Shown here: positions 30,463-54,104 of the stretch, in pieces
How positions within the stretch are numbered: the first letter of the stretch is position 1
How the letters are laid out: every line of letters begins with the position of its first letter
IMG/VR virus record: IMGVR_UViG_3300035701_000014
Length of the DNA stretch: 64,000 nucleotides
Reading direction: 5' to 3' (one strand)
Source of the DNA: a virus
Taxonomy: Duplodnaviria; Heunggongvirae; Uroviricota; Caudoviricetes
The notes under the pieces: generated by a model
Told to the model about the DNA's origin: nothing
Seen by the model: the letters and a program-made list of their open reading frames with translations, nothing else
Databases searched by the model: none
Program-made: the position numbers and the translations under genes

Positions 30463-30653
30463 GTGAGAGATATTGGATAACAGGTGCTCAGTTAGGATTG
30501 CTCCAAGTTGCAGCAACCGAAGAATCAAGGAAGTTTGTGATAGATAACATTATAGACAAACAGTTCATCTGCAATTGTTTTACTGAAGAGGCAAAGAAGA
30601 AGTTTGAAGAAGAAGTCGAAAAACTTGCTAAAGGAGTTGGGGAGGGTGCATGA
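30459..30653 (+). CDS. hypothetical small protein
   Basis: ORF track 64 aa. Confidence 0.35.
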   Translation: MSERYWITGAQLGLLQVAATEESRKFVIDNIIDKQFICNCFTEEAKKKFEEEVEKLAKGVGEGA

Positions 30654-31464
30654 AATGCCAGAAGGTGAATTAAAAAACATTCCGATTTCGGACATACTTG
30701 TTTTGGAGAACATACGCTCTAGACTCGACTTGGATGACCTGACATCGCTCATGATGAGCCTAAAGCAAAATGGATTGCTGCAGCCTGTGGGTGTCTATAA
30801 AAAGCGTGATAGTAATAAATACATCTTGAATTGGGGTCACAGGAGATTTGAAGCAGCCAATAAGCTGGGCTGGAAGACCATACCAGCGATGGTATCGAAC
30901 ATAGAGCTTTCTGAGGACGAATTTCTTATTTTAAATGCAATCGAGAATCTCCAGAGGAAGGACAATTCGCCAGTGGAGTTCGGCAGGATTTGTGCAAGGC
31001 TGAAAGAGGATTTCAACTTGTCTGTCAGCGAGATTGCTGCACGGTTGTCAGTCCCGAAGGGCAAGGTCACAAGGGCTATAGAAATCTATTCAAAAGTCCC
31101 GAAAGAACTGCAGCACATAATCGGCTACAGGATTGGCGGGGCAATACCGACTGGAAAGGTATCAGCCACTACCGCAAATGAAATACTGCGTCTGCATCTA
31201 ACTCAGGAAGTTACCACGAACCTTTTCAATGAGGCAAGGAGAAACGAGCTCGGGGTCAAGGACATAAGGCTGATTGGAATAATGATTCAGTCTGGCTCTA
31301 GCCTGCAGGATGCATTGGAAGAGCACCAGAAATACAAGCTGAAGACTGCGTTCCTAGCAGTAAACAAAAAGAAGTGGAAGAGCATCGAAGATTCGCAAGA
31401 TATAACATTCACCGATTTCCTGAGAAAGCTTGTGAAGGGTTACGACAGGGGATTGGTAAAGTAA
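30604..31464 (+). CDS. ParB-like (ParB/Srx N-terminal domain) protein, copy 1
   Basis: 286 aa (TTG start in track; ATG at 30655); NWGHRRFEAANKLGW. Confidence 0.6.
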   Translation: MKKKSKNLLKELGRVHEMPEGELKNIPISDILVLENIRSRLDLDDLTSLMMSLKQNGLLQPVGVYKKRDSNKYILNWGHRRFEAANKLGWKTIPAMVSNIELSEDEFLILNAIENLQRKDNSPVEFGRICARLKEDFNLSVSEIAARLSVPKGKVTRAIEIYSKVPKELQHIIGYRIGGAIPTGKVSATTANEILRLHLTQEVTTNLFNEARRNELGVKDIRLIGIMIQSGSSLQDALEEHQKYKLKTAFLAVNKKKWKSIEDSQDITFTDFLRKLVKGYDRGLVK

Positions 31465-32293: not shown

Positions 32294-32626
32294 ATGGAAG
32301 TGTATGTTAAGTTCAACAACGGGAAGGTAGGCTGGATTCCATTAGAATCAATTCTGCCTGCTGGAACGAAACCACCGATGCCAAAGAAGAAACATATCCC
32401 AGAACAGATACTTGAAGCTTTGGAGCTTGCCGAGAAGGCTAACACGCCATTGACAAAGATGCAACTAGCAAATGATACGGGGATAAAAGAAGGAACGCTG
32501 AATGTCTCCCTTCTCGACTTATATAGAAAAGGAATAGTGAAAAGGATACCAGCAACTCAGAATGGGCATCTGGTATTCCAGTATGCTATGGATAGGAGTA
32601 TCGATAAGAGCAAGGTGGAACAATGA
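32294..32626 (+). CDS. winged-helix DNA-binding protein
   Basis: 110 aa; TKMQLANDTGIKEGTLNVSLLDLYRKGIVKRI. Confidence 0.4.
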   Translation: MEVYVKFNNGKVGWIPLESILPAGTKPPMPKKKHIPEQILEALELAEKANTPLTKMQLANDTGIKEGTLNVSLLDLYRKGIVKRIPATQNGHLVFQYAMDRSIDKSKVEQ

Positions 32627-33801
32627 CCGAAGCGTTTTATTACATTGTAGCCCTCTTCATTTTTGGAGGAATCATAGTAACGAAACCAGACCTCCTTTCA
32701 GAAGCCTTGAGTTTCCTAGGGGTCTTGGGCGGGTATTTTTCTGATATTTTTTCGAATCTGAATTCGGCAAATAAAGCTGCAAATAGAAATGTTGTTAAGC
32801 TAAAAAAAAGAGGTGAGATTGTGCCAGAGGAATCAGGTAATGTATTAAAAATAGTCTTTGCGGTTGTAGCAGGAATCTTCCTGTTATGGTTTGCATCGCA
32901 ATGTATAGAGAGGATAGACACGGGTTACAAAGGAGTGATATACAATGCGTGGTCTGGACTTGATGAACAAACAACATGGGACAGTGGATGGCATCTGAAA
33001 GTTCCGATACTGCAGAGCATCACCAATGTGCCAATATCGAGGCAAACCGTGAATATGTATGGGGTCAACTTTGACAAGGATTGCAAGCCATACCCTGATT
33101 GCGATGACATGGCAATCCAAGTGCCAAGCAAGGAAGGGTTGATAATAACCGTAGATGTTACGGTATTCTTCAGAGTCAACCCTGCCAAAACACCGCAGGT
33201 TGTGAAGCAATTGACAATGAACTATAAGGAAGGGACAGTCATGCCACTCATGAGAAGTGTCGTGAGGGATGTGGCTGGTCAGATGACAATAACAGAACTC
33301 TACGGGTCAGGCAGGGAAAAGCTGGAATCGGAAATGACTACAAGACTAACGGAATATATGAACAAGGACAACCTGATACTAGAGGGAGTCTTGATAAGGG
33401 ATGTCGAGATGCCTGCACAGATAAAGCAATCAATCCAAGACAAGATGACTGCGGAGCAGACAAGTCTTCAGAAGGACTACGAAATCCAGATTGCCCAGAA
33501 GGAGGCAAACAGAACTGTTACAGAGGCAAAAGGAAGAGCCGATGCTGCTGCATTGCAGAAGACCATTGATGCACAGGCACAGGCAACTGCCACAGTCTTG
33601 ACAGCTCAGGCAAATGCAAACAAGACCATTCTGGAAGGATTGGCTCAGGCACAAGCTATAGAGGCAATCAACAAGCAACTCGCACAGAGTCCACAATATG
33701 TGCAACTGAGGTATGCAGAGCAGTGGGACGGTAAGCTTCCGTTGTATATGCTAGGAGGCGCACTCCCATTGATTAACATACCGACGAATGCAACAAGATG
33801 A
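32623..33801 (+). CDS. SPFH/band-7 (stomatin/prohibitin-like) membrane protein
   Basis: 392 aa; N-terminal TM, SPFH-like core (YNAWSGLDEQ..GWHLKVPILQSI..), Ala/Gln-rich coiled-coil C-terminus. Confidence 0.5.
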   Translation: MTEAFYYIVALFIFGGIIVTKPDLLSEALSFLGVLGGYFSDIFSNLNSANKAANRNVVKLKKRGEIVPEESGNVLKIVFAVVAGIFLLWFASQCIERIDTGYKGVIYNAWSGLDEQTTWDSGWHLKVPILQSITNVPISRQTVNMYGVNFDKDCKPYPDCDDMAIQVPSKEGLIITVDVTVFFRVNPAKTPQVVKQLTMNYKEGTVMPLMRSVVRDVAGQMTITELYGSGREKLESEMTTRLTEYMNKDNLILEGVLIRDVEMPAQIKQSIQDKMTAEQTSLQKDYEIQIAQKEANRTVTEAKGRADAAALQKTIDAQAQATATVLTAQANANKTILEGLAQAQAIEAINKQLAQSPQYVQLRYAEQWDGKLPLYMLGGALPLINIPTNATR

Positions 33802-39800: not shown

Positions 39801-41081
39801 GTGGCATTGAAACACGTCACATTGGATGGAGTCAGGCTACATCTGAAGACCGATGAGATGAAACTCTGGGTCAATGGATACTACATCTTATTCCTGAACA
39901 AGACCGCATCCGCAATCTTCGAGGCATTCATAGACAGTTGTTACGAAGTCCCAAGGGAAAAAATAGTGGAAACCACTATCAACAAAATCACAAAGAAGTT
40001 CAAGGTCAACAAGGAGACTGCAGAGAAAGACCTGCACCAGCTCATCGGGATAGTCAATAGCCTCGCAAGGAATGAGATACCCACTCACCTTATTGGAGTG
40101 AAGAATATCGAATGCGGGAGCAAGACTGCCCCAAACAGGATGGACTTGTCATTATCCTATAACTGCAACAACCGATGCTCATTCTGCTACCTGCCGAAGA
40201 ACGAGAATGAAAATGGGACTCTTGCGACATGGCAATGGAAGCAAGTCATACATAGACTGTGGAAGATTGGCATTCCACAGATTGTCTTCACTGGAGGGGA
40301 ATGCACTCTCAGGGATGATTTGCTGGAGCTCGTGAGATTCAGTAAGGAGTTCGTCACTGGGATAATCTCAAACGGGACAAACATAACCCCCGAGCTTGCG
40401 AAAGATTTGAAAAAGGCGGATTTGGACTGGATTCAGATTACTCTCGAGACCCCGAATCCAACAGTCCATGATGAGATGCAGGGAAGGAAAGGTGCATGGA
40501 AGGAAACAGTCAGGGGAATAAGGAATTGTGTCGATGCTGGTCTGCAGGTGAGTATCAATGCGACTCTGACAAAGGAAAACTTTGTGGACTTGCCTGCCCT
40601 GATAAGGTTCGCAAAGAAGCTGGGAGTCGGCTCTGTGTCAACCAATGCGATAATCCGAGCTGGCAGGGGCATCAAGGCAAAGGATTCTCTTGGTTTGAGC
40701 GAGGAGGTTTTGAAGAAGACTTTGATTGAAGCAAAAGAAGTGGCAAAGAAGGAAGGGATAGGCTTCAACTGGTTCTTGCCTACCTGCTACAAGAAGCTCA
40801 ACCCAGTGGAGCTCGGATTCGGTCAGAGAGCTTGCTCCGCCTGCTCGATAAATATGATGGTAGAGCCGAATGGGGATGTGATTCCATGCCAAAGCTGGAC
40901 AGGACTAAAACTCGGCAACATTCTGAATGACAAATGGGAATCAATATGGAATAAGAAGGAAGCACAGGAGATAAGGGCATCAAGATATGCAGACCCGAAG
41001 TGCCAAGGCTGCAAATACTTCAGTATGTGCAAAGGTGCGTGCCCGTTGGATAAGCTGAATGGATGTTACAGAGGTGTATGA
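39801..41081 (+). CDS. radical SAM enzyme with C-terminal SPASM domain and about 110-aa N-terminal extension
   Basis: 426 aa; CNNRCSFC (CX3CX2C); C-terminal CSACS...CQ...CQGCKYFSMCKGACP; N-terminal extension could be an RRE-like domain. Confidence 0.65.
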   Translation: MALKHVTLDGVRLHLKTDEMKLWVNGYYILFLNKTASAIFEAFIDSCYEVPREKIVETTINKITKKFKVNKETAEKDLHQLIGIVNSLARNEIPTHLIGVKNIECGSKTAPNRMDLSLSYNCNNRCSFCYLPKNENENGTLATWQWKQVIHRLWKIGIPQIVFTGGECTLRDDLLELVRFSKEFVTGIISNGTNITPELAKDLKKADLDWIQITLETPNPTVHDEMQGRKGAWKETVRGIRNCVDAGLQVSINATLTKENFVDLPALIRFAKKLGVGSVSTNAIIRAGRGIKAKDSLGLSEEVLKKTLIEAKEVAKKEGIGFNWFLPTCYKKLNPVELGFGQRACSACSINMMVEPNGDVIPCQSWTGLKLGNILNDKWESIWNKKEAQEIRASRYADPKCQGCKYFSMCKGACPLDKLNGCYRGV

Positions 41082-41748: not shown

Positions 41749-43278
41749 ATGAAAAGACAGGACATGCTCTTCTGGGCGGTCTTCATAGCAATCGAACTGC
41801 TGCTCGTCGGAGTAGTCCACGCAGACACAGGAACATATACAATCGAAAAGCAGTTTACCAACCTGACAGTCCACACCAGTGGGGATGTCGACATAGCATA
41901 CTACGTCAAATTCAGGGTCGATAGCGGTAACATCCCTTGGGTCAGGATAGGGTTGCCCAATGCAGATTTCAGTATCAATAATTACGGAGGTGCAGCTTCT
42001 GCCATCCGCCCAGAGAATGATGCTGGCTGGTCGGGAGTATATATAACATTGGACAAGACCTACTACGCTGGAAACAGTTTCGACTTCTATTTCTCTGCAA
42101 CCCAACATGGCTTTATATATAAATACAACAACAACGCAACCATCGAGTTCACTCCAGTCTATTGGGACTACGCAAATACCGAGCAGCTCGCAATTACGGT
42201 GATTCTGCCTCCAACGATAAAGAATGTGACTACCTCCAGCGAGCCTACGCAATGGGGTGCAGGAAACAGCACAATATTATGGCAATGGAGTAGCCTTGGT
42301 CATGGAGAAAGGAAGACAATCGGGGTCATCATGCCTCTCGGTGCATTTAACAATACTTCGCTTCCTGATAAGCAATCGACTCATGCTGGTTATCAGTCAT
42401 CCAGCAGTCCGAACACTCCAACTACAGATTTAACTGGTCTCATTACCACGATGATTCCCGTCATGATTCTGCTTGCATTTGTCATAGTTTTATTGGGCGG
42501 TTTATCAGGAATATCCAGAGGAGGGGAGAATTATGAATCACCTTCAGTTTCGGTTGGTGGGGATAAGGAGATAACAAGACACTTGAACATGGTTTGCCCG
42601 AATGACAAAAGCCCACTGGACAAGAGGACTGTGAGTGACACGACCATCGATTATTGCGATACCTGCGGTGGATGCTGGTTTGACAAAGGGGAAATCGAGA
42701 GTCTCATCACAGATGGGATTGACGAGAAAGCCCTGAATACAAATGGCAAGGACTATTCATTCCAACAGATAAAGAAACATAAGACTGTATGCCCAAGATG
42801 CGAAGGGAAAATGCACAAGAAGTCAAGGGCAGGGGCTTCGATATTCGTCTGTGAGAACTGCGAGGGAATCTGGCTTGACAGAGGGACTTACCAGAAAATC
42901 AAGGACAAGAGAGCAGAGCAAGAAAGCCTCCAGAAAGATAAAGTCGAAAAAGCCAAACAATTAGTTTCTGGAAAGAAAACAGATGAAGACCGAGAAGTGC
43001 ATGTGCATTACTATCCTTCCTATTGGTGGTGGTTCTATCCATACATAGGGCATACTGGGACTTATTGCAAACAGGCAATCTGTGCGGACAACAAGAGCAG
43101 TGGAGGAAGTGAAAGTAGTAGCAGTTCCTATGAATCATCATCCTCAAGTTGTGCCTGCGTGAGCTGTGCCTGCGTTGCAGCATGTGCGTGTGCCTGCGCC
43201 TGCGCTGGGGGGTCGGCAGCAGGATGCAGTCCGAAGAATAAATTCAACCAGATAAGTTTGTGGGATGACAAAAAATGA
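41749..43278 (+). CDS. large secreted/membrane protein with twin zinc-ribbon modules and Ser/Cys/Ala low-complexity tail
   Basis: 509 aa; signal-like N-terminus; CPNDKSPL..CDTCGGCWFDKGE and CPRCEGK..CENCEGIWLD; tail SSSSSYESSSSSCACVSCACVAACACACACAGG. Confidence 0.45.
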   Translation: MKRQDMLFWAVFIAIELLLVGVVHADTGTYTIEKQFTNLTVHTSGDVDIAYYVKFRVDSGNIPWVRIGLPNADFSINNYGGAASAIRPENDAGWSGVYITLDKTYYAGNSFDFYFSATQHGFIYKYNNNATIEFTPVYWDYANTEQLAITVILPPTIKNVTTSSEPTQWGAGNSTILWQWSSLGHGERKTIGVIMPLGAFNNTSLPDKQSTHAGYQSSSSPNTPTTDLTGLITTMIPVMILLAFVIVLLGGLSGISRGGENYESPSVSVGGDKEITRHLNMVCPNDKSPLDKRTVSDTTIDYCDTCGGCWFDKGEIESLITDGIDEKALNTNGKDYSFQQIKKHKTVCPRCEGKMHKKSRAGASIFVCENCEGIWLDRGTYQKIKDKRAEQESLQKDKVEKAKQLVSGKKTDEDREVHVHYYPSYWWWFYPYIGHTGTYCKQAICADNKSSGGSESSSSSYESSSSSCACVSCACVAACACACACAGGSAAGCSPKNKFNQISLWDDKK

Positions 43279-46765: not shown

Positions 46766-46837
46766 AGCCGATGGAGAGACTCGAACTCCCAGCTTCGTCC
46801 TTACAGGGGACGCACTCTACCATTGAGTTACATCGGC
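46766..46837 (-). tRNA. tRNA-Thr(TGT), anticodon loop CCTGTAA with C at position 33
   Basis: manual fold: GCCGATG/CATCGGC acceptor, D ACTC-AATGGTA-GAGT, AC stem CGTCC/GGACG, T arm GGGAG-TTCGAGT-CTCTC; no encoded CCA. Confidence 0.55.
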
Positions 46838-47478
46838 AACTTGTTTAACCTTGATTTTTTATCCTCGCTTATCTTCTTCAGGTTTTCCTCCTTTGGTAAC
46901 CACCTATGATTCTCAGGTGCGAATGCGAGCTTCACCTGTTCTAGGTCTGTCAGGTCGAATGAACACAATGCTTTGATGTGGTCAACTACATACTCCCCTT
47001 CAGGTTTCTTGCCTAGGTGCTGAATAATTGCGTTATAATCAATTCCATACTCATCTACATGAAGCTTTTTTCCCTCACCATACTGTTTGAGAGCCACATT
47101 CAATCGTTTACGCAATCGGTTACAAATAACAAAACTTTCATCAGTCTTACTCTTTATAAAGCGATATGCTCTCTTCTGTGCTTTGACCTCGGGTAGTCGA
47201 CGATATTCTACTATCCATTCCTTATATTCTGGTGTCTGCTGATATATCTTTTTTCTTACCTTCACTTCAAGTCTCTGTCCATACCCCACCATATACTCTC
47301 CTTTTTGCATTTTAACTTCGGATAATTGGTCATAAGCGTTTTTCTTTGCTTTTACTTTAGGGCGTTGGCGATATTCCTTCAGATATTTTTTTCTCTTAGG
47401 TAACTGGGTATAATGTCTACTGCATACACCTTTTGCAAGAATCTCTCTTCCACATCCTTCAACTGAGCAAATTTCCAT
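46828..47478 (-). CDS. HNH homing endonuclease (paralog) inserted in the tRNA array
   Basis: 216 aa; CSVEGCGREILAKGVCSRHY; HVDHIKALCSFDLTDLEQVKLAFAPENHRWLPKEENLKK. Confidence 0.65.
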   Translation of the reverse strand: MEICSVEGCGREILAKGVCSRHYTQLPKRKKYLKEYRQRPKVKAKKNAYDQLSEVKMQKGEYMVGYGQRLEVKVRKKIYQQTPEYKEWIVEYRRLPEVKAQKRAYRFIKSKTDESFVICNRLRKRLNVALKQYGEGKKLHVDEYGIDYNAIIQHLGKKPEGEYVVDHIKALCSFDLTDLEQVKLAFAPENHRWLPKEENLKKISEDKKSRLNKLPM

Positions 47479-47491
47479 ATTCTCACTTTAA

Positions 47492-47564
47492 GGCTGAGAG
47501 TCGGGACTTGCACCCAAACCAAAGGTGTCACAGACCTCTATGCTACTATTACACCACTCCAGCC
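47492..47564 (-). tRNA. tRNA-His(GTG) with genomically encoded G-1
   Basis: AC arm GAGGT-CTGTGAC-ACCTT; G-1 opposite discriminator C; T loop TGCAAGT. Confidence 0.6.
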
Positions 47565-47567
47565 ATA

Positions 47568-47640
47568 CGCCCCGAGTCAGAATCGAACTGACAACCAACG
47601 GGTTAACAGCCCGCTACTCTATCCGTTGAGCTATCGGGGC
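47568..47640 (-). tRNA. tRNA-Asn(GTT)
   Basis: GCCCCGA/TCGGGGC acceptor; AC loop CTGTTAA; T arm GTCAG-TTCGATT-CTGAC. Confidence 0.7.
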
Positions 47641-47717
47641 ATTCTATTTTTCAAATCCTAGGATTCCGCATTTCAATTCCTAGGGCAATGTTCACTATTT
47701 AGTGAACACCACTTTCA

Positions 47718-47788
47718 TGCTCCGAGAGAGAATCGAACTCCCATGTTCGGGTCTTCAGCCCGACGTTCTCCCATTGAACTATCAGAGC
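47718..47788 (-). tRNA. tRNA-Phe(GAA)
   Basis: AC arm TCGGG-CTGAAGA-CCCGA; T arm GGGAG-TTCGATT-CTCTC. Confidence 0.7.
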
Positions 47789-47791
47789 AAA

Positions 47792-47875
47792 CGCCGAGGG
47801 CAGGATTCGAACCCACATTGCCCTCATCGGACTTCAGTTTTCAGGACTGACACCCTACCATTAGGTGACCTCGGC
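47792..47875 (-). tRNA. tRNA-Ser(TGA)-like type-II tRNA (long variable arm), loop CCTGAAA (C33)
   Basis: GCCGAGG/CCTCGGC acceptor; AC arm TCAGT-CCTGAAA-ACTGA; variable-arm hairpin GTCC-GATGA-GGGC; T loop TTCGAAT. Confidence 0.5.
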
Positions 47876-47876
47876 A

Positions 47877-47948
47877 TGCTCCCAATCGGGTTCGAACCGA
47901 TGACCTTCAGCTTATCAGACTGTTGCTCTACCACTGAGCTATGGGAGC
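47877..47948 (-). tRNA. tRNA-Ile(GAT)
   Basis: GCTCCCA/TGGGAGC acceptor; AC loop CTGATAA; T arm ATCGG-TTCGAAC-CCGAT. Confidence 0.6.
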
Positions 47949-48137
47949 TCACAAATCCTTGACCATGTTTTTCATATATCCCTTACCATGCGTATATCCC
48001 TCATCATATCCTTTCTTCCAAGCGAGTGCCTTTTCGCAAGGGCATATCTTCCCATTCCATTTCCACATGCAGCCCTCGCACTGTGCCAGAGGAAAGAAAA
48101 ATTTACCCCGATTCTCTTCTTCCATCTCAATCACCAT
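47949..48137 (-). CDS. small Cys-rich protein between tRNAs (hypothetical)
   Basis: ORF track 62 aa; CEGC...C.C. Confidence 0.3.
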   Translation of the reverse strand: MVIEMEEENRGKFFFPLAQCEGCMWKWNGKICPCEKALAWKKGYDEGYTHGKGYMKNMVKDL

Positions 48138-48142
48138 TTAAG

Positions 48143-48265
48143 TGGAGGAGAGGGGATTCGAACCCCCGAGCCACTTAGGCAACTGGTTTCTCAATCAAGT
48201 AATTTGATTGCTTTAGGCTACTTAACGTCTAAGCCAGCCACATTACCTGATTCTGTCACTCCTCC
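48143..48265 (-). tRNA. tRNA-like element, unresolved (canonical T arm + 7-bp GGAGGAG/CTCCTCC acceptor but about 120 nt; intron-containing, aberrant or pseudo)
   Basis: GGGGG-TTCGAAT-CCCCT T arm and a perfect 7-bp acceptor pair; I could not fold the D/anticodon region by hand. Confidence 0.3.
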
Positions 48266-48269
48266 ATAA

Positions 48270-48342
48270 TGGGGTCGGAGAGATTCGGACTCTCATAGCC
48301 AACTCCCAAGGCTGACCGCCTCCCAGACTAGCTCACGACCCC
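48270..48342 (-). tRNA. tRNA-Pro(TGG)
   Basis: GGGGTCG/CGACCCC acceptor; AC arm TCAGC-CTTGGGA-GTTGG (G37); T arm GAGAG-TCCGAAT-CTCTC. Confidence 0.6.
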
Positions 48343-48347
48343 ATCAA

Positions 48348-48421
48348 CGGGGACGGAGGGATTTGAACCCTCACTCGCAAGTCCGTAGCTTGCTTTCCTA
48401 TCCAGTTAGATTTACGCCCCC
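48348..48421 (-). tRNA. tRNA-Arg(ACG)
   Basis: AC arm GCAAG-CTACGGA-CTTGC; T arm GAGGG-TTCAAAT-CCCTC. Confidence 0.65.
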
Positions 48422-48591
48422 TTCACTCTTTTCTGAAAGACAATATTCCCATTATCCTCAAGCACTCCGTCATAGCCGAGGTCATCAAATGCCTTCCTTA
48501 TCTTCTCCAGCTCGGTCAAGGGAAACTCTCCCTCAAACACTGTCAGCTTCACGTTCCCCTGCATTATCTTTTTTTCTTCTTCACTTGCCAT
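48412..48591 (-). CDS. small hypothetical protein between tRNAs (track ORF 48412..48687 trimmed to the internal Met to avoid tRNA-Asp)
   Basis: MASEEEKKIMQGNVKLTVFEGEF...; overlaps the tRNA-Arg 5' end by about 10 nt. Confidence 0.25.
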   Translation of the reverse strand: MASEEEKKIMQGNVKLTVFEGEFPLTELEKIRKAFDDLGYDGVLEDNGNIVFQKRVKGA

Positions 48592-48603
48592 ATTATCCCT
48601 CAA

Positions 48604-48676
48604 CGCCTCAGCCGAGATTTGAACTCGGAACTCCAGCTTGACAAGCTGGGATGTTTGCCAATTACAACACCGAGGC
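48604..48676 (-). tRNA. tRNA-Asp(GTC)
   Basis: AC arm CCAGC-TTGTCAA-GCTGG; T arm CCGAG-TTCAAAT-CTCGG. Confidence 0.7.
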
Positions 48677-48679
48677 AAT

Positions 48680-48752
48680 TGCTCCAACAGAGACTTGCAC
48701 TCTGGTCACGAGGCTGAGAACCTCGCATCCTTGGCTACTAGACGATTGGAGC
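48680..48752 (-). tRNA. tRNA-Glu(CTC)
   Basis: GCTCCAA/TTGGAGC; D arm GTCTAGTAGCCAAGGAT; AC arm CGAGG-TTCTCAG-CCTCG; T loop TGCAAGT. Confidence 0.65.
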
Positions 48753-48784
48753 AGTTCTTTGTTAAACATGTTAAACCCGTTAAA

Positions 48785-48859
48785 TGTTCCCGACGAGATT
48801 TGAACTCGTGCCTTCAGGGTGAAAGCCTGACATCCTTAGCCGTGCTAGACGACGGGAAC
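48785..48859 (-). tRNA. tRNA-Glu(TTC)
   Basis: GTTCCCG/CGGGAAC; AC arm TCAGG-CTTTCAC-CCTGA; T arm ACGAG-TTCAAAT-CTCGT. Confidence 0.7.
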
Positions 48860-49056
48860 TTCTCTTTGATTTTCGGAGGTGGGAAGTGAAGTATATCTGC
48901 ATCTATCCGCACATGACCTCGTTCTTCCTTCAGGTCATTCCAAATGCAGAGGTGCAGATGCGGATACTTCTTCTGTATCTCCTCAATCTCTGCTATGAAT
49001 TTATCCAGTTCCGAATAATCAAATTTCTTTTCTTCCATACTATCACCTACAACCAC
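48814..49056 (-). CDS. small hypothetical protein
   Basis: ORF track 80 aa; overlaps tRNA-Glu(TTC), so doubtful. Confidence 0.2.
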   Translation of the reverse strand: MVVGDSMEEKKFDYSELDKFIAEIEEIQKKYPHLHLCIWNDLKEERGHVRIDADILHFPPPKIKEKFPSSSTAKDVRLSP

Positions 49057-49292
49057 TTCTCAATCGATTCAGGAGTCACAAGCTCCACGTCGGTTATCAG
49101 TATGCAACTGCGATTCAGCTCAGGTCGGTATCCTATCTCCTTGGTGACCATGAGCAGCTCGTCGTGTGCCTTGTTTATTTTATCCTTTAGCTCGTCACTA
49201 CAACGGACATCAGGATTCATTCTAAGCAACTCCTGCACATCCTCAGACATATCGATGTCAATAATTTTTTTCACGTTTCCCATGTTCCTCAC
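49047..49292 (-). CDS. small hypothetical protein
   Basis: ORF track 81 aa, acidic. Confidence 0.3.
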   Translation of the reverse strand: MRNMGNVKKIIDIDMSEDVQELLRMNPDVRCSDELKDKINKAHDELLMVTKEIGYRPELNRSCILITDVELVTPESIEKWL

Positions 49293-49296
49293 CTCA

Positions 49297-49370
49297 TGAG
49301 CCTGATGGGATTTTAACCCATGACCTTCTGGTTAAAAGCCAGTCGCTCTGACAAACTGAGCTACAGGCTC
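49297..49370 (-). tRNA. tRNA-Lys(TTT)
   Basis: GAGCCTG/CAGGCTC; AC loop CTTTTAA; T loop TTAAAAT. Confidence 0.65.
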
Positions 49371-49374
49371 ACCA

Positions 49375-49448
49375 CGAACCCGACGGGATTCCAACCCATG
49401 ACCTGTCGGTTAAGAGCCGACTGCTCTAGCAAACTGAGCTACGGGTTC
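49375..49448 (-). tRNA. tRNA-Lys(CTT)
   Basis: GAACCCG/CGGGTTC; AC arm GTCGG-CTCTTAA-CCGAC. Confidence 0.7.
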
Positions 49449-49451
49449 ACA

Positions 49452-49522
49452 TACGGCTAGAGGGATTTGCACCCTCGTCGAGAACTTGGAGGGCTCTCAT
49501 CCTGCTACTAGACGATAGCCGT
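49452..49522 (-). tRNA. tRNA-Gly(TCC), loop CCTCCAA (C33)
   Basis: ACGGCTA/TAGCCGT; AC arm AGAGC-CCTCCAA-GTTCT; T arm GAGGG-TGCAAAT-CCCTC. Confidence 0.55.
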
Positions 49523-49525
49523 GCA

Positions 49526-49597
49526 TGGGGGCGAGGAGATTTGAACTCCCACAAGCAGCTCTGGGGGCTGCCTTCCTGCCAGTTAGATAACGTCCCC
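49526..49597 (-). tRNA. tRNA-Trp(CCA), loop CCCCAGA (C33)
   Basis: AC arm GCAGC-CCCCAGA-GCTGC; T arm GGGAG-TTCAAAT-CTCCT; one A.C mismatch in the acceptor. Confidence 0.5.
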
Positions 49598-49598
49598 A

Positions 49599-49670
49599 TA
49601 GCCACAGCAGGAATCGAACCTGCACCGTTGCTTTGTAAGAGCAACATCCTACCGTTAGAATCATGTGGCT
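49599..49670 (-). tRNA. tRNA-Val(TAC)
   Basis: AGCCACA/TGTGGCT; AC arm TTGCT-CTTACAA-AGCAA; T arm GCAGG-TTCGATT-CCTGC. Confidence 0.7.
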
Positions 49671-49676
49671 GCAGTA

Positions 49677-49777
49677 TAGCCCTAGGAGGACTTGCACCTC
49701 CGTCTCTGGATTTCCCCAGCCAAGTTCAGAATCTGGTCTTCAAAGTCCAGCATCCTTGGCTACTAGACCATAGAGCT
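49677..49777 (-). tRNA. tRNA-Gln(TTG) with about 28-nt intron at canonical 37/38 (archaeal-type)
   Basis: AGCTCTA/TAGGGCT acceptor (one G-U); AC 5' stem CTGGA + CTTTGA, intron at about 49711-49738, then A-TCCAG; T arm GGAGG-TGCAAGT-CCTCC. Confidence 0.55.
49711..49738 (-). other. putative tRNA-Gln intron (bulge-helix-bulge-type, 37/38 position)
   Basis: AGACCAGATTCTGAACTTGGCTGGGGAA interrupts the anticodon loop; the 3' anticodon stem TCCAG follows. Confidence 0.45.
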
Positions 49778-49781
49778 ACCT

Positions 49782-49855
49782 TAGCCAGAACCAGATTTGA
49801 ACTGGTGTTCTCGGGTTATGAGCCCGATGCCCTGACCATGCTAGACCATCTGGCT
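49782..49855 (-). tRNA. tRNA-Met(CAT) (elongator or initiator undetermined)
   Basis: AGCCAGA/TCTGGCT; AC arm TCGGG-CTCATAA-CCCGA; T arm ACCAG-TTCAAAT-CTGGT. Confidence 0.65.
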
Positions 49856-49856
49856 A

Positions 49857-49927
49857 TACGGTTGCTGGGAGTCGAACCCAGCCCGCAAGCATGGCAAGCT
49901 CGCATCATACCGCTAGACTACAACCGT
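49857..49927 (-). tRNA. tRNA-Gly(GCC)
   Basis: ACGGTTG/CAACCGT; AC arm CGAGC-TTGCCAT-GCTTG; T arm CTGGG-TTCGACT-CCCAG. Confidence 0.65.
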
Positions 49928-49933
49928 ATTGCA

Positions 49934-50034
49934 TGGAGCTGCAGGGACTCGAACCCCGAGCCTCCTGCTTTTTTGGTCGTTGAGTATCTCAACAATCTGC
50001 AAAGCAGACGTTCTACCAATTGAACTACAGCCCC
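49934..50034 (-). tRNA. tRNA-Ala(TGC) with about 28-nt intron at 37/38; G3:U70 identity pair present
   Basis: GGGGCTG/CAGCTCC acceptor with G3-U70; AC TCTGC-TTTGCA-[intron about 49970-49997]-A-GCAGG; T arm CGGGG-TTCGAGT-CCCTG. Confidence 0.6.
49970..49997 (-). other. putative tRNA-Ala intron containing hairpin GTTGAG-ATA-CTCAAC
   Basis: GATTGTTGAGATACTCAACGACCAAAAA between anticodon-loop positions 37 and 38. Confidence 0.45.
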
Positions 50035-50044
50035 TTCCAATGAA

Positions 50045-50115
50045 TCTGGGCTGGAGGAGTTGAACCACCACTTACGGGTTTACAGCCCGTCGTGATACCA
50101 TTTCACCAAGCCCAG
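50045..50115 (-). tRNA. tRNA-Tyr(GTA), type I (short variable arm, archaeal/eukaryal style)
   Basis: CTGGGCT/AGCCCAG; D GTGA-AATGGTA-TCAC; AC arm ACGGG-CTGTAAA-CCCGT. Confidence 0.65.
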
Positions 50116-50399
50116 AACAAAGATGATAGCAGAAAAGAGATTTCTTAACAACCTTGTTCTTTCGACAACATGCTTGGATAATTATCTCCCGTGATAAAAC
50201 TAGCTCTCGGCTGCCACGCCTTTACTGTGACTAAATGCGGGAGTTTCATATACCTTACCTTGCTGCTTTCATTATATATAAACCTTTCGTTTCTCCGAGT
50301 CTAGAGAGCACAAGCAATCCAATCCCACGTGCACTTAGAGATTGTTTTTATATAACGGGATGTTAATCCCATTACTCTCTCCAGATTGCTTATGCTTTT

Positions 50400-50459: not shown

Positions 50460-51101
50460 ATGAAGGTCGCCTTGTATGCACGTGTCTCAACTACCGACAA
50501 GGGACAGAACCCAGAAATCCAACTGCAGCCCATGCGGGAGCGTGCAAAGAGTGAAAACTGGGAAATCTACAAGGAATATATAGACCGTGAGACAGGAACT
50601 GATTTTGAAAGAAAATATTGGGAGCAGCTCATGGAGGATGCAAAACACCATAAGTTCGATGCCGTCTATTTCTGGAGTCTCGACAGGTTCAGCAGGGTCG
50701 GAGTGTTCGAGTCAATCGAAATCCTCAACAGGATTCGCTCCTATGGAATCCGTTACATCTCCCATCAGGAATGGTTTCTCAATACAATGGGAAGCTTCGG
50801 GGATGTGCTCGTAGCTCTCTTCCTCTGGATGGCTCAGCAGGAAAGCAAGCGTCATGGGGAGAGAGTCTTGGCTGGCATGAACCCAATACTCGAAAGCCAC
50901 AAGCGTCTTGGAGTTTGGAAAACCAAATCAGGCAAACCAATTGGAAGACCGCAACTGAAACTAGATGCAGTTATCCTTGCCAAGATAAAGAAGCTCCACT
51001 TGGAAGGTGCGAGCCTGCGTGAAATCAGATACAGGCTGCTGAAAGAAGATGGAGTCAAGGTTTCTCACTCCAAGCTGGGAAAGATTTTCAAAAGCCATTA
51101 A
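50460..51101 (+). CDS. serine recombinase (resolvase/invertase family)
   Basis: 213 aa; MKVALYARVSTTDKGQNPEIQ catalytic-Ser motif; ..RFSR..; C-terminal HTH. Confidence 0.75.
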   Translation: MKVALYARVSTTDKGQNPEIQLQPMRERAKSENWEIYKEYIDRETGTDFERKYWEQLMEDAKHHKFDAVYFWSLDRFSRVGVFESIEILNRIRSYGIRYISHQEWFLNTMGSFGDVLVALFLWMAQQESKRHGERVLAGMNPILESHKRLGVWKTKSGKPIGRPQLKLDAVILAKIKKLHLEGASLREIRYRLLKEDGVKVSHSKLGKIFKSH

Positions 51102-51260: not shown

Positions 51261-51803
51261 TCATCGAGGGAGGACATCTGTGCTGTTGCAGAAGCAGGCA
51301 CAATTGTGGAAAGTCTGGTTTAACGTCGTAGTGTTGGTAACATTAATCACGACGGCATACATCATCCGCATCGTCCTGTTGTAGAGAGACTCATTCATCA
51401 GCTCCTTGAACCAGTCTGGGGTATACGACGGCGTAGCCATTTCCATTGCTTTCTTCATTTCTTCGTCGTAATTGAAGCAGACAGTTCTGGTATGCGTCGA
51501 GGTGATGAATCTAGTCCCATTCTGGGGTTGCTGTTGGCATAAGTCATCTACGGCGAGGAAATACGAGCTCCTCCAGAACGCAGCGTCGTTATACCACCTG
51601 ACAAGATACAGCCCCGTAGCCATCATCACGAAGAGGAGGATGGCGAATAGACCCCTCCAGTAATCCATGAACTTGTTTATCCTTCCTGCGACGGGTATGC
51701 GGTCTATTCCCTTGCTGACAGCCTGTGCGGTCATCATTTCTTCACGCAAAGTATGCCTCTCAAGCCACTTACCCATGTCATTTATACGGTCTAGCAGGGA
51801 CAT
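51261..51803 (-). CDS. membrane protein (hypothetical)
   Basis: ORF track 180 aa; TM segment; N-x-T sequons. Confidence 0.4.
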   Translation of the reverse strand: MSLLDRINDMGKWLERHTLREEMMTAQAVSKGIDRIPVAGRINKFMDYWRGLFAILLFVMMATGLYLVRWYNDAAFWRSSYFLAVDDLCQQQPQNGTRFITSTHTRTVCFNYDEEMKKAMEMATPSYTPDWFKELMNESLYNRTMRMMYAVVINVTNTTTLNQTFHNCACFCNSTDVLPR

Positions 51804-51880: not shown

Positions 51881-52777
51881 TTATTTATTTTGCTGGGTGT
51901 TTTCCTCTTTTAGTTTCAGATATTTTCTCATTGCAACATTTCTGACTAACATCGCTGTAGGGTATCCACATCCGAACTCTGCCATGATGTCTGGTATCTT
52001 CAATCGCAGCTTACCATCCACTTCCTTGATGATATTCTTGGCTATCACTGCATCCACTAGCTGATTCACTGCAACCTGCTTGTCCTGCTGTGCTGCGTTC
52101 ATCTCCGCTATATCCGTCCTCACCTCTTCCTTCAGCCTTCTTGAGAAGCTCTTTTTTATCTGTTCATACTCCTCGCAGAACCTTGGAGGCGGTTTGGGAA
52201 TCCTGAGTTCTTTCACTTTTATATTTTGCCCCCTGTAATTCACATTCGGGAATTTGAAATAAGTCTTGCTGAACCTCGGGGAATATTCCACATTCATCGG
52301 CTTGACCACAACATACTCCTCGGAATACATTATCCTGACAGTTTCAAAGTAATGATGGAAAAGCCTGCGGGTCTGCGAGTCTATGAAGTCGAATGACGGC
52401 GTTGTGAATATCACGCAGATGTTGTAGTTCCTGAATGTCTGCAGCAGGAAGTTGATTGCCTTGTTACTCACCGTCCACCATAGCCTCGAGGGAATCCCGA
52501 CCCCCGCCTCGTCCCAGACAACGACGCTTCCCTTCGGAGGTTTTCCTGCATCTATGTCTATCATCTCGATGAAGTCTTCGGCTCTGAAGACGACTCGCTC
52601 CTTGACAGTAAAATCAGAATCAATCCTTCTGGCGAGCTCCAAGGCAGAATAAGACTTTCCAGAATTGTGCGTTATAATCCCATTCTTCAAGATAAAATTA
52701 TGGAAGTCTGGAACTATCAAATCTGCCGTTTCTTCTTCCTTTTGTGGCTCTATGCTGATAACTCTCTCGAAATGCAT
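51881..52777 (-). CDS. split-intein C-fragment (IntC, about 38 aa) fused to the C-extein of a P-loop NTPase (putative genome-packaging ATPase)
   Basis: 298 aa; N-terminal ..DLIVPDFHNFILKNGIITHN|SGKSY.. resembles DnaE-type IntC ending HN + Ser(+1); Walker B VVVWDEAG. Confidence 0.65.
   Translation of the reverse strand: MHFERVISIEPQKEEETADLIVPDFHNFILKNGIITHNSGKSYSALELARRIDSDFTVKERVVFRAEDFIEMIDIDAGKPPKGSVVVWDEAGVGIPSRLWWTVSNKAINFLLQTFRNYNICVIFTTPSFDFIDSQTRRLFHHYFETVRIMYSEEYVVVKPMNVEYSPRFSKTYFKFPNVNYRGQNIKVKELRIPKPPPRFCEEYEQIKKSFSRRLKEEVRTDIAEMNAAQQDKQVAVNQLVDAVIAKNIIKEVDGKLRLKIPDIMAEFGCGYPTAMLVRNVAMRKYLKLKEENTQQNK
52664..52777 (-). other. IntC split-intein segment
   Basis: 38 codons before the +1 Ser; block-G-like HN. 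Confidence 0.6.
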
Positions 52778-53670
52778 TCTTTCAACCTCTCATCATTTTT
52801 GATTATGTCTTCAGTCAAATGAATAATCTGAATTCCAAGTCCAACAAACTGCCTATCTCTTTCTGCTTCCATCTTCACGTCGGAATGCCATTTTTTTCCA
52901 TCTGCTTCAAAAATAGTTTTTAGAAGTGGAAAATAGAAATCTGGAAATTTGAAACCACCATTTGTAGCTAGATAATAGTTATATACAAAATCATAATCAT
53001 CAAAGCAATCTTCTATAGAATCCTTTTCAGAACATCCAAAAGTAAACAAAGCCCCTTTTACCTTGTTCTCCAACTTCGTAATATGATTTCTACGAAGGAT
53101 AAAATTTGGATGTTTTTCAGGATGTTCCAAGAATAGCTTCTTCATATCATCGCTTTTTTTATTTCTTACCTCTAGCCTCTTTGATGGATTATCTATCCTA
53201 TTCCTCATACTCACATATTCCAATCGTTTGCCATAATTCGGACTCTTATGGGTCTCGAAATACTCCAATTGAGATTTTTGCATTTTTTCTTTGGTTTTTT
53301 GATTCTTCATAGGATTGTCAATCAAATTCCTATATATGCGGGCACAGCTCTTTGAACAGAATCTTCTTTCTTGATTGTGCGTTTCAAACACATTCTTACA
53401 CTGTTGGCAAGTTATTTTTATTAATCCTTCCCCTTTGTTATACGGGGTAAGTTTCCCTTCTCTATATAACCTCCTACGGGCTTCGGAAATATTTTGTTTG
53501 CGTTCTATAGTGAATTTTTTGCCCAATTGAGATTTACCTATCTTTCTTCTCGTTTTTTCAGAATGATGTCGCCCATACATAATTTTGTTGAACCCCTGAT
53601 TATAAGTCTGGCATCTATGCGAACAATACTTCAAATTTGAAGTTTCATTTCCGCACTCTATACAATACAT
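52750..53670 (-). CDS. free-standing homing-endonuclease-like protein between the split-intein halves (zinc ribbon + basic repeats + nuclease-like C-terminus)
   Basis: 306 aa; MYCIECGNE..CSHRC; repeated K/R-rich modules; role inferred from its position within the fractured gene. Confidence 0.4.
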   Translation of the reverse strand: MYCIECGNETSNLKYCSHRCQTYNQGFNKIMYGRHHSEKTRRKIGKSQLGKKFTIERKQNISEARRRLYREGKLTPYNKGEGLIKITCQQCKNVFETHNQERRFCSKSCARIYRNLIDNPMKNQKTKEKMQKSQLEYFETHKSPNYGKRLEYVSMRNRIDNPSKRLEVRNKKSDDMKKLFLEHPEKHPNFILRRNHITKLENKVKGALFTFGCSEKDSIEDCFDDYDFVYNYYLATNGGFKFPDFYFPLLKTIFEADGKKWHSDVKMEAERDRQFVGLGIQIIHLTEDIIKNDERLKECISRELSA

Positions 53671-54104
53671 ATTTCATCGCCTATTTTTATATCTCGTAAT
53701 GGTCTCTCTACAATCCTACCTCTAGTCTTGACAAAAAATTTATGGTCTCCAGTAGCCTTCACAGATTTTCCAGATGATGTTTTCAATAGGAATACTTTTT
53801 TGATACCAGATGGCTTCACTATTGCATAAGAGAATTTTGTTTTCTTTTTCAAAAAATCAAACACTTTGACATCTACACTAGCTTCTATCACAGACTTTCC
53901 AATGAGGTCATCCAACGTTTTGATACCCCTAGAAGTGCAAATTCGAGTATCCAGAGACAAGCACCCCGTAGCCCCGCATACGATTGCAAGCTCGTTTCCA
54001 TTCCTCGAAAGCATCTTTTGCCTTGCGTTGTAGCAAATCTGGTTTAACGCATACTCGTAGAGCGGGTCGTCCAATTTTGTCAAAAGCTCACCCAAATCAC
54101 CCAA
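53658..54104 (-). CDS. N-extein (47 aa, ends ..AIVCGATG) of the P-loop NTPase fused to split-intein N-fragment (IntN, about 101 aa)
   Basis: 148 aa, TTG start; CLSLDTRI... and ..ATGDHKFFVKTRGRIVERPLRDIKIGDEI resemble DnaE IntN (..ATKDHKFMTVDGQMLPIDEI..). Confidence 0.65.
   Translation of the reverse strand: MGDLGELLTKLDDPLYEYALNQICYNARQKMLSRNGNELAIVCGATGCLSLDTRICTSRGIKTLDDLIGKSVIEASVDVKVFDFLKKKTKFSYAIVKPSGIKKVFLLKTSSGKSVKATGDHKFFVKTRGRIVERPLRDIKIGDEICIV
53661..53963 (-). other. IntN split-intein segment
   Basis: starts at Cys48 (CLSLDT), ends at the stop after GDEICIV. Confidence 0.6.

Follow-up and report, generated by a model that had tools for sequence, protein, structure and literature searches.

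A probable fractured gene in an archaeal virus-like element: a Zot-like ATPase interrupted within its Walker A motif by a split intein and a predicted Vsr-like homing endonuclease

Organization of the locus

IMG/VR virus record IMGVR_UViG_3300035701_000014, analyzed here as one stretch of 64,000 nt (the window), is best described as an archaeal virus or virus-like element. At positions 51881–54104 it contains three overlapping open reading frames (ORFs), designated A, B and C, all on the minus strand and each in a different frame. Together these ORFs very probably constitute a genuine fractured gene, in which a Zot-like P-loop ATPase has been invaded within its Walker A codons by a 1.3-kb cassette consisting of a split intein and a homing endonuclease (HEN).

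ORF A (53658–54104) comprises 148 amino acids (aa) when counted from a TTG at 54104, and it ends with a TAG at 53658–53660. It encodes an N-extein of up to 47 aa (53964–54104), whose final GATG is specified by codons at 53964–53975, and then, in frame, an intein's N-terminal segment, IntN (53661–53963; 101 aa), which starts at Cys1 with CLSLDT (block A), has TGDH as its block B and ends in ..IGDEICIV. With a slash marking the border between extein and intein, here and below, the ORF reads ..NELAIVCGATG/CLSLDTRI..ATGDHKFFV..IGDEICIV and then stops. ORF B (52750–53670; 306 aa) is the free-standing HEN gene. It has a frame to itself, in which a stop precedes the ATG by one codon; a nuclease domain of the Vsr-like, DUF559 or EDxHD type is predicted at 52753–53088 (about aa 195–306). 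ORF C (51881–52777; 298 aa) starts with an ATG at 52777, which has an in-frame stop four codons before it and a GAGGT Shine-Dalgarno-like motif 7 nt upstream. This ORF encodes the intein's C-terminal segment, IntC (52664–52777; 38 aa, MHFERVISIEPQKEEETADLIVPDFHNFILKNGIITHN), with blocks F and G and a terminal HN, and then a C-extein of 260 aa (51884–52663) that begins with Ser+1 of SGKS (52652–52663) and includes the Walker B motif. It reads MHFERV..DFHNFILKNGIITHN/SGKSY..VVVWDEAG. The overlap is 13 nt between ORFs A and B and 28 nt between ORFs B and C. The whole insert of IntN, HEN and IntC is 1,300 nt long (52664–53963; GC content 0.346), and its ends are the intein boundaries.

Re-reading the window verified the positions of the three ORFs and their three frames as given in a preliminary description of this DNA, and the lengths reported there (101 aa for IntN, 38 aa for IntC, 307/308 aa for the spliced product) agree with ours. 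In an archaeal element, scans for sigma-70 promoters and terminators are uninformative. Within the insert, at 35% GC, the longest run of codons lacking a stop is 307, compared to a mean of 59 and a maximum of 127 in 2,000 shuffled sequences; the pattern of three ORFs is thus beyond chance.

Reality of the gene breaks

Are the breaks between the ORFs real? Three other contigs, L001 (JGI 3300035660), L003 (JGI 3300035688) and L004 (Logan, SRR11719878), are 100% identical to the window, jointly covering both junctions, and an identical ORF A was also called on L004. At least three datasets and two assembly pipelines are represented among the four identical copies, the window included, and neither junction window contains homopolymers. 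Given such identical independent assemblies, the three-ORF layout is not an artefact. One might still propose that frameshift errors in sequencing or assembly have split a contiguous intein with a nested, in-frame HEN domain into three ORFs. In P0163, P0206 and others, a HEN of this type is indeed nested in frame within a contiguous intein, and at a related locus, L090, IntN and HEN are found in one frame. However, the errors would have to fall within homopolymer-free windows of about 16 and 40 nt, in contigs that agree across both junctions, and stops are found just upstream of the ATGs of ORFs B and C. Furthermore, the N-terminal zinc ribbon of ORF B is the same as in a free-standing relative, P0131, and the break between HEN and IntC is also present in the diverged loci L090, L100 and L104. 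A frameshift artefact is extremely improbable.

The insert is also foreign in composition. The N-extein and C-extein have GC contents of 0.489 and 0.462, with 0.617 and 0.588 at third codon positions (GC3), whereas the corresponding values are 0.350 and 0.297 (GC3) for IntN, 0.342 and 0.330 for the HEN, and 0.368 and 0.447 for IntC. The points at which the composition changes coincide with the intein boundaries, which supports the view that IntN, HEN and IntC arrived together as a single foreign 1,300-nt unit.

The interrupted ATPase

When the exteins are joined (47 + 260 aa), they have 409 database homologues of roughly 280 aa, which are uninterrupted; the best of these are 236–330 aa long and have the Zot domain PF05707. 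In an alignment of the joined exteins with 15 homologues, IVCGATG/SGKSYSAL lies opposite the consensus IICGxTGSGKSYSAL with zero gaps, and on the N-extein side the family consensus is NKNWLAIICGxTG/SGKS. All 32 residues that are invariant in the family in this 16-sequence alignment are retained, including Walker A and Walker B. The gapless junction places the intein inside the Walker A motif, and the two halves rebuild a single homologue. The C-extein matches PF05707 above its gathering threshold (E = 3e-5, 24.0 bits; cut-off 20.3) and phrog_5484 (2.2e-9), and with both Walker motifs present the protein is a Zot-like P-loop ATPase. After Walker B, the C-extein consists of a beta-rich domain and then a helical C-terminal domain (AlphaFold2 model, pLDDT 85).

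This supports the proposal that splicing would rebuild the Walker A motif GATG/SGKS; the junction peptide would be AIVCGATGSGKSYSALELAR, and the corresponding DNA of an intein-free allele would read ..GGGGCTACGGGG/TCTGGAAAGTCT.. / ..ATCGTATGCGGGGCTACGGGG/TCTGGAAAGTCTTATTCTGCC... The exteins had been taken for the parts of one ATPase before, and the gapless alignment to uninterrupted homologues bears this out; the packaging role that was then considered plausible for it is not specifically supported.

Among the best 80 related metagenome loci retrieved with the ATPase, the P-loop is uninterrupted in 78, so the intein-free allele is the norm. The exceptions are L026, to which we return below, and L033, which looked truncated in the P-loop but was rejected, as the contig, from a probably circular element of 16.2 kb, simply ends there. 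None of the other related ATPase loci that we retrieved carries the IntN-HEN-IntC insert, and a search of IMG/VR yielded two distant ATPase relatives only.

The split intein

ORF A matches the profile TIGR01445 (intein_Nterm) with an E-value of 4.8e-11 (43.5 bits; cut-off 24.5), and ORF C matches TIGR01443 (intein_Cterm) with 1.1e-4 (22.3 bits; cut-off 15.6). The splicing-domain profile PF14890 is shared out between the two, with profile positions 7–94 in ORF A and 119–155 in ORF C. These matches represent opposite ends of a single splicing domain, and the earlier identification of intein halves thereby stood up to a search with intein hidden Markov models. All of the class-1 splicing residues are present: C1 (in CLSLDT), T-x-x-H in the form of TGDH, the ITHN end and S+1. 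The concatenated IntN and IntC align end to end with engineered mini-inteins (6rpp, 1.9e-11; 4o1r, 9.8e-11), and the junction between ORFs A and C maps to the loop where mini-inteins have had their HEN domains taken out. Hence, the intein appears to be split at the canonical endonuclease-insertion loop; it looks competent, and splicing is predicted. The net charges of IntN (+11) and IntC (–4) are complementary, which speaks for association of the predicted halves.

What kind of intein is this? Among solved structures, the Pyrococcus CDC21-1, DnaB and RadA inteins rank best (1.9e-11 to 6e-8), and a VMA intein is also among the best matches; gp41-1 reaches 1.3e-2. The DnaE split inteins reach 2.6e-3 to 1e-2 (7qil, 2.6e-3; 4kl5, 1.1e-2), and DnaE inteins as a whole rank 12th or lower (2.6e-3 to 0.5), after the CDC21, DnaB, RadA, VMA and TFIIB inteins. 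The host protein is not DnaE either, and the label "DnaE-like" that had been attached to the intein is too specific; the resemblance is best read as generic HINT similarity. Like the cyanobacterial Npu and Ssp DnaE inteins, this is a naturally split class-1 intein with Cys1, an IntN of about 100 aa, an IntC of about 36 aa and similar motif wording (CLS.., ..DHKF.., ..HNF.LKNG....N). However, in DnaE the two halves come from loci that lie far apart and have no HEN in between, whereas a HEN gene separates the halves here, and the +1 residue is Cys in DnaE and Ser in the window. Documented hot-spots for inteins include the P-loops of MCM/CDC21 (site a), DnaB (site b) and RFC-S (PMC4760082), and the class-1 inteins found in P-loops (MCM/CDC21-a, DnaB-b, RFC-a, RadA and VMA; Novikova et al. 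2016, PMC4760082) are the closest relatives in sequence among solved structures (6rpp, 1.9e-11; 4o1r, 9.8e-11; 4e2u, 6e-8; 4o1s, 1.6e-5). Unlike the one described here, which is split and has an out-of-frame Vsr-like HEN gene, those inteins are contiguous, being either mini-inteins or inteins with a nested LAGLIDADG endonuclease.

The possibility has to be considered that the insertion inactivated the ATPase, and that the locus is a decaying relic in which the fragments remain unspliced and stops have not yet accumulated. Splicing of the fragments is a prediction from sequence, and the ATPase of L026, which is accompanied by a related HEN, has a frame-breaking 17-nt insert in its P-loop, indicating that disruption can occur. 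On the other hand, none of the splicing residues or conserved nuclease residues has been lost in the window, and the open frame of the insert is well over twice the longest found in the shuffled sequences. The extein has kept every family-invariant residue, the halves of the intein have complementary charges, and the ATPase is a conserved, single-copy gene in the small elements that carry it. We regard a relic as distinctly unlikely.

The homing endonuclease

ORF B is made up of a zinc ribbon (aa 3–22), NUMOD3-like helices, a second zinc ribbon (aa 88–110) and a C-terminal nuclease; both ribbons have the form CxxC..CxxxC, as read from the sequence. Queried against the PDB as a single sequence, ORF B had no match even at E = 10. 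Word-index protein searches essentially recovered only the query itself, for ORF A as for ORF B, and matches to PHROG "homing endonuclease" families were sub-threshold. An exhaustive search with ORF B, on the other hand, produced 443 relatives. In an alignment of 27 relatives, E201, D244, F245, E255, H262 and R271 are invariant and D257, G258 and D272 nearly so, resulting in the signature PDF..E-x-DG-x-x-W-H-x-D..RD. By our own reading, rather than by structural superposition, the ORF B residues would correspond to Vsr D51, H69 and D97. When the family profile was compared to the PDB, it matched 3hrl (DUF559; 3.8e-9) and 3r3p, the catalytic domain of I-Bth0305I (7.8e-7). DUF559 was detected in all of the 27 relatives, Vsr in nine and NUMOD3 in 11 (best E-value, 3.1e-10). 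An AlphaFold2 model of ORF B has a pLDDT of 83, rising to >90 in the C-terminal domain, and a Foldseek search with the model found 3r3p with a TM score of 0.75 and 1vsr with a TM score of 0.53 and a probability of 1.0. Profile and predicted fold thus support the assignment of ORF B as a predicted nuclease, a HEN of the Vsr-like family later named EDxHD (PMC3239194), and give substance to what had been noted previously as a zinc-ribbon/nuclease-like ORF.

The prototype of the EDxHD or Vsr-like HENs is I-Bth0305I (3R3P; PMC3239194), which combines an N-terminal modular DNA-binding region with a C-terminal nuclease of the Vsr fold, as ORF B probably does. In contrast to ORF B, it is encoded in a group I intron in the recA gene of a Bacillus phage and has NUMOD2 and helix-turn-helix repeats; ORF B lies inside a split intein, has zinc ribbons and NUMOD3-like helices, and is only about 16% identical.

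Related cassettes at other loci

Related inteins and HENs are present at four diverged loci, L090, L100, L101 and L104. Their IntN sequences are 32–40% identical to that of the window where compared (32–34% for L090 and L100, with E about 1e-15), and their HENs are 37–45% identical to ORF B. In L090 (1493–4490), the N-extein ends in ..GICGMPG, and IntN (34% identical; E = 3e-15) is fused in frame to the HEN in a single ORF; a second, overlapping ORF reads ..YHNFILKNGIISHN/SGKTTL, and its IntC is 50% identical to that of the window. L100 (386–1953) reads ..TFGGQG/CLSEETK..SSSDHTFFK.. up to a stop, followed by the HEN P0123, which is the closest relative of ORF B, and by an overlapping IntC that runs off the end of the contig. 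On L101 (2–1064) there are only the C-terminus of an IntN and the adjoining HEN. L104 (1893–5442) has ..EWKGTQR/CLSEDT.., then a HEN and then ..NNNFILSNGILSHN/SGKTTG... The C-extein of L104 contains a second intein, with a LAGLIDADG domain.

The exteins of L090, L100 and L104 belong to different P-loop ATPases, and the readable junctions lie directly before the Walker A sequence SGK[ST], the same position as in the window. The break between HEN and IntC is kept in these three loci; L101 ends before that point. From an evolutionary standpoint, this recurrence at the loci compared speaks for a real split layout, and it suggests that the HEN lineage recognizes Walker A-coding DNA.

In L026 (512–1560; Ga0255054_10025522), a full-length relative of ORF B, P0131 (8e-37), is located directly upstream of an ATPase of the same family that has no intein. 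The 17-nt insert in the P-loop of this ATPase (about 1422–1438) lies three codons from the insertion point in the window, and could be an assembly error, the mark of a pseudogene, or an insert that disrupts the target site. T4 gene 60 with mobA offers a possible analogy. Overall, HEN relatives lie within or beside the same Walker A site at five loci besides the window, which bears indirectly on the predicted cleavage of insertion-free alleles.

A different arrangement is seen in P0163, P0206, P0197, P0213, P0238, P0242 and P0179, which are contiguous inteins with an in-frame nested HEN of the zinc-ribbon/NUMOD/Vsr-like (DUF559) type, hosted by phage Mu-F-like (PF04233) proteins. According to a 2025 preprint (10.1101/2025.01.02.630785), the Vsr-like HENs known in inteins are confined to the split inteins of Dassa et al. 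and, in antisense orientation, to actinophage inteins. Since the preprint lists only split or antisense cases, in-frame nesting of a Vsr-like HEN in an intein may be unreported. The HEN relatives on L002 (P0122) and L102 (P0125) had no recognizable flanking intein parts, and a DNA match to the HEN motif on L081 was dismissed as chance, as it lies at the stop of the ATPase.

It is possible, and we propose it only tentatively, that the window represents the first archaeal-virus member of an undescribed lineage of Walker A-targeting intein/HEN cassettes that hop between unrelated ATPases via ../SGK[ST]-coding DNA. The unit of this lineage would be a split class-1 intein with a zinc-ribbon/NUMOD/Vsr-like HEN. 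The relatives would then between them cover all stages proposed for gene breaking or "collaborative homing": a HEN beside an intein-free target (L026), a separate HEN gene in a split intein (the window, L100 and L104), a HEN fused to IntN (L090) and a HEN nested in a contiguous intein (the Mu-F proteins P0163 and P0206).

Has the HEN of the window retained its homing function? The split intein could be functional and the HEN inactive or domesticated, so that the layout has become fixed and possibly regulatory, with conditional assembly of the ATPase. P-loop inteins have indeed been proposed to act as post-translational switches (PMC4760082; PMC4513877), and a close intein-free relative that could serve as a homing target was not found. 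However, ORF B has kept the conserved nuclease residues and the full predicted DNA-binding architecture that it has in common with its relatives, the cassette's markedly foreign composition points to a rather recent arrival, and the presence of the cassette lineage in several different ATPases implies ongoing mobility. A HEN that no longer homes is unlikely.

Comparison with known fractured genes

Fractured genes were described by Dassa, London, Stoddard, Schueler-Furman & Pietrokovski (2009, NAR 37:2560; PMC2677866). The IntN of these genes is 88–105 aa long and the IntC 33–54 aa; the HEN is free-standing and either Vsr-like or GIY-YIG, with NUMOD3 N-terminal to the nuclease domain, and Vsr-like HENs are found in 12 fractured genes, half of the original set (PMC2677866). 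The locus in the window resembles such genes (gp41-1, gp41-8, IMPDH-1, NrdJ-1 and NrdA-2) in most respects. The order of N-extein and IntN, HEN, and IntC and C-extein is the same and all parts are on one strand, with IntN in frame after the N-terminal half of the host protein and IntC in frame before the C-terminal half. The free-standing gene between the halves, ORF B, is of the Vsr-like type, with NUMOD3-like helices predicted N-terminal to the nuclease. The lengths of IntN and IntC are within the published ranges, and the intein is split at the HEN-insertion loop. As in gp41-1 and gp41-8 (PMC2677866), IntN is positively and IntC negatively charged, and a conserved viral enzyme is broken in a catalytic motif. 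The likeness to fractured genes pointed out in the preliminary description is thus confirmed in structure, by recurrence in diverged loci and by identity in independent assemblies. On the other hand, the host protein of the window is a Zot-like (PF05707) ATPase rather than an enzyme of DNA synthesis or repair or a T4-type terminase; it resides in an archaeal virus-like element and not in a cyanophage-like marine or freshwater phage; and its HEN has the two CxxC..CxxxC zinc ribbons.

How would such a gene work? One transcript would be produced, from which the three overlapping ORFs would be translated. The basic IntN and the acidic IntC would associate and fold into a HINT domain, in which Cys1, TGDH, the terminal Asn and Ser+1 would carry out trans-splicing to yield a 307-aa ATPase with an intact P-loop. 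Meanwhile, the HEN would cut intein-free alleles of co-infecting relatives at or near the DNA that codes for the P-loop, and recombinational repair would then copy the cassette in.

Several points weigh against a functional fractured gene of this kind. Splicing, DNA cleavage and the cleavage target are what we infer from sequence. ORF B by itself falls below the Pfam cut-offs, both for DUF559 (0.0087; 16.4 bits against 20.6) and for NUMOD3 (0.0076; 16.6 bits against 20.4), and its assignment consequently depends on the profile of its family and on the fold predicted for it. The start of ORF A is uncertain, as in-frame TTGs a few codons downstream, behind GGTGA-like motifs, may be the true start. 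The 100% identity of all four copies rules out a dN/dS estimate, so that purifying selection is unmeasurable there. No close intein-free sister genome was found among the homologues, of which the best is 52% identical, and for this reason recent invasion is not directly shown. Finally, most published fractured genes have a spacer of 27–51 nt with control elements before the HEN, whereas the ORFs of the window overlap; this spacer is a descriptive feature of the published loci, not a functional requirement.

The element and its archaeal setting

Members of the ATPase family (PF05707) are found mostly in archaeal metagenome-assembled genomes (MAGs), including those of Thermoplasmatota, Hydrothermarchaeum, Iainarchaeum and Methanococcoides, and on small archaeal virus-like contigs; a few are on contigs binned to bacterial MAGs (Fermentibacteria, Saccharibacteria and WOR-3). 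Among the small contigs, Ga0209721_1001624 (16,179 nt; retrieved as L016, L033 and L089) and L088 (16,727 nt) have an intein-free ATPase together with surface-protein-like ORFs of 700–980 aa, one of them with DUF2341. The former is probably circular, since the ATPase is found at both of its ends. We regard these ATPase-carrying elements, at about 16 kb, as candidates for small archaeal viruses.

In a collection of phage and archaeal virus genomes, the sole relative of the spliced extein was from the lemon-shaped Haloferax virus LSV-48N (PP151251.1), whose "DnaA-like" or Zot-like ATPase (WWZ16981.1; PHROG 5484) is 33% identical over 74% of the query (3e-26). The neighborhoods are similar, with an ATPase, a small ORF and a recombinase of about 210 aa (in LSV-48N a 206-aa "integrase"; L005:14294–16685). 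In the window, the ATPase is accompanied by a 180-aa ORF (51261–51803, minus strand) and a serine recombinase (Resolvase, 1.6e-25; 50460–51101, plus strand). In contrast to the window, the LSV-48N gene is uninterrupted, and its genome is 24.9 kb, while the window, apparently from a contig of about 81 kb, represents at least 64 kb and has 19 tRNAs.

Other genes, all on the plus strand, encode PCNA-like (7264–8184), ParB-N (30604–31464), radical SAM/SPASM (39801–41081), two-TFIIB-type-zinc-ribbon (41749–43278) and SPFH/Band 7 (32623–33801) proteins, as well as a Thg1-like tRNA-His guanylyltransferase (3380–4081), an RlaP nucleotidyltransferase (10478–11485) and a Ro60/TROVE-vWA protein (28466–29878). 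The 19 tRNA genes form an array at 46766–50116 on the minus strand and represent 17 amino acids, with Glu, Lys and Gly present twice, which is unusual for an archaeal mobile element; an HNH-endonuclease-like ORF (46828–47478) is located inside the array. The Thg1-like, RlaP and Ro60/TROVE-vWA proteins form a set for RNA repair and tRNA maintenance, which together with the tRNA array may be a counter-measure to host defenses that target tRNA. Cumulative GC skew peaks at about 46 kb, where the genes turn from the plus to the minus strand; the peak may reflect an origin or terminus of replication, or just the divergence of transcription. Pfam and PHROG searches with 29 neighboring ORFs recognized no capsid, portal or terminase. 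The hosts of the ATPase homologues, the relative in LSV-48N and the gene content of the window support the archaeal setting that had been suggested for it.

Evolution and significance

The fractured-gene layout as such, though rare, is already known from phage metagenomes; new here are the host protein and the archaeal setting. Searches of a literature library, itself incomplete, turned up no fractured gene reported from an archaeal virus or within a Zot-like ATPase. With this locus, the range of fractured genes grows to include an archaeal virus-like element and a new host protein.

Naturally split inteins are rare and are prized for protein ligation, and gp41-1, NrdJ-1 and IMPDH-1 all come from fractured genes. 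The locus described here offers a candidate Cys1/Ser+1 split pair whose halves are strongly complementary in charge and of which several diverged relatives exist. When the related loci are added, a comparative series results that can test how free-standing HENs enter inteins and how split inteins arise, and how a cassette can move between different ATPases via their shared Walker A sequence. The wider lineage, along with the inteins that have an in-frame nested Vsr-like HEN, may merit a separate study.

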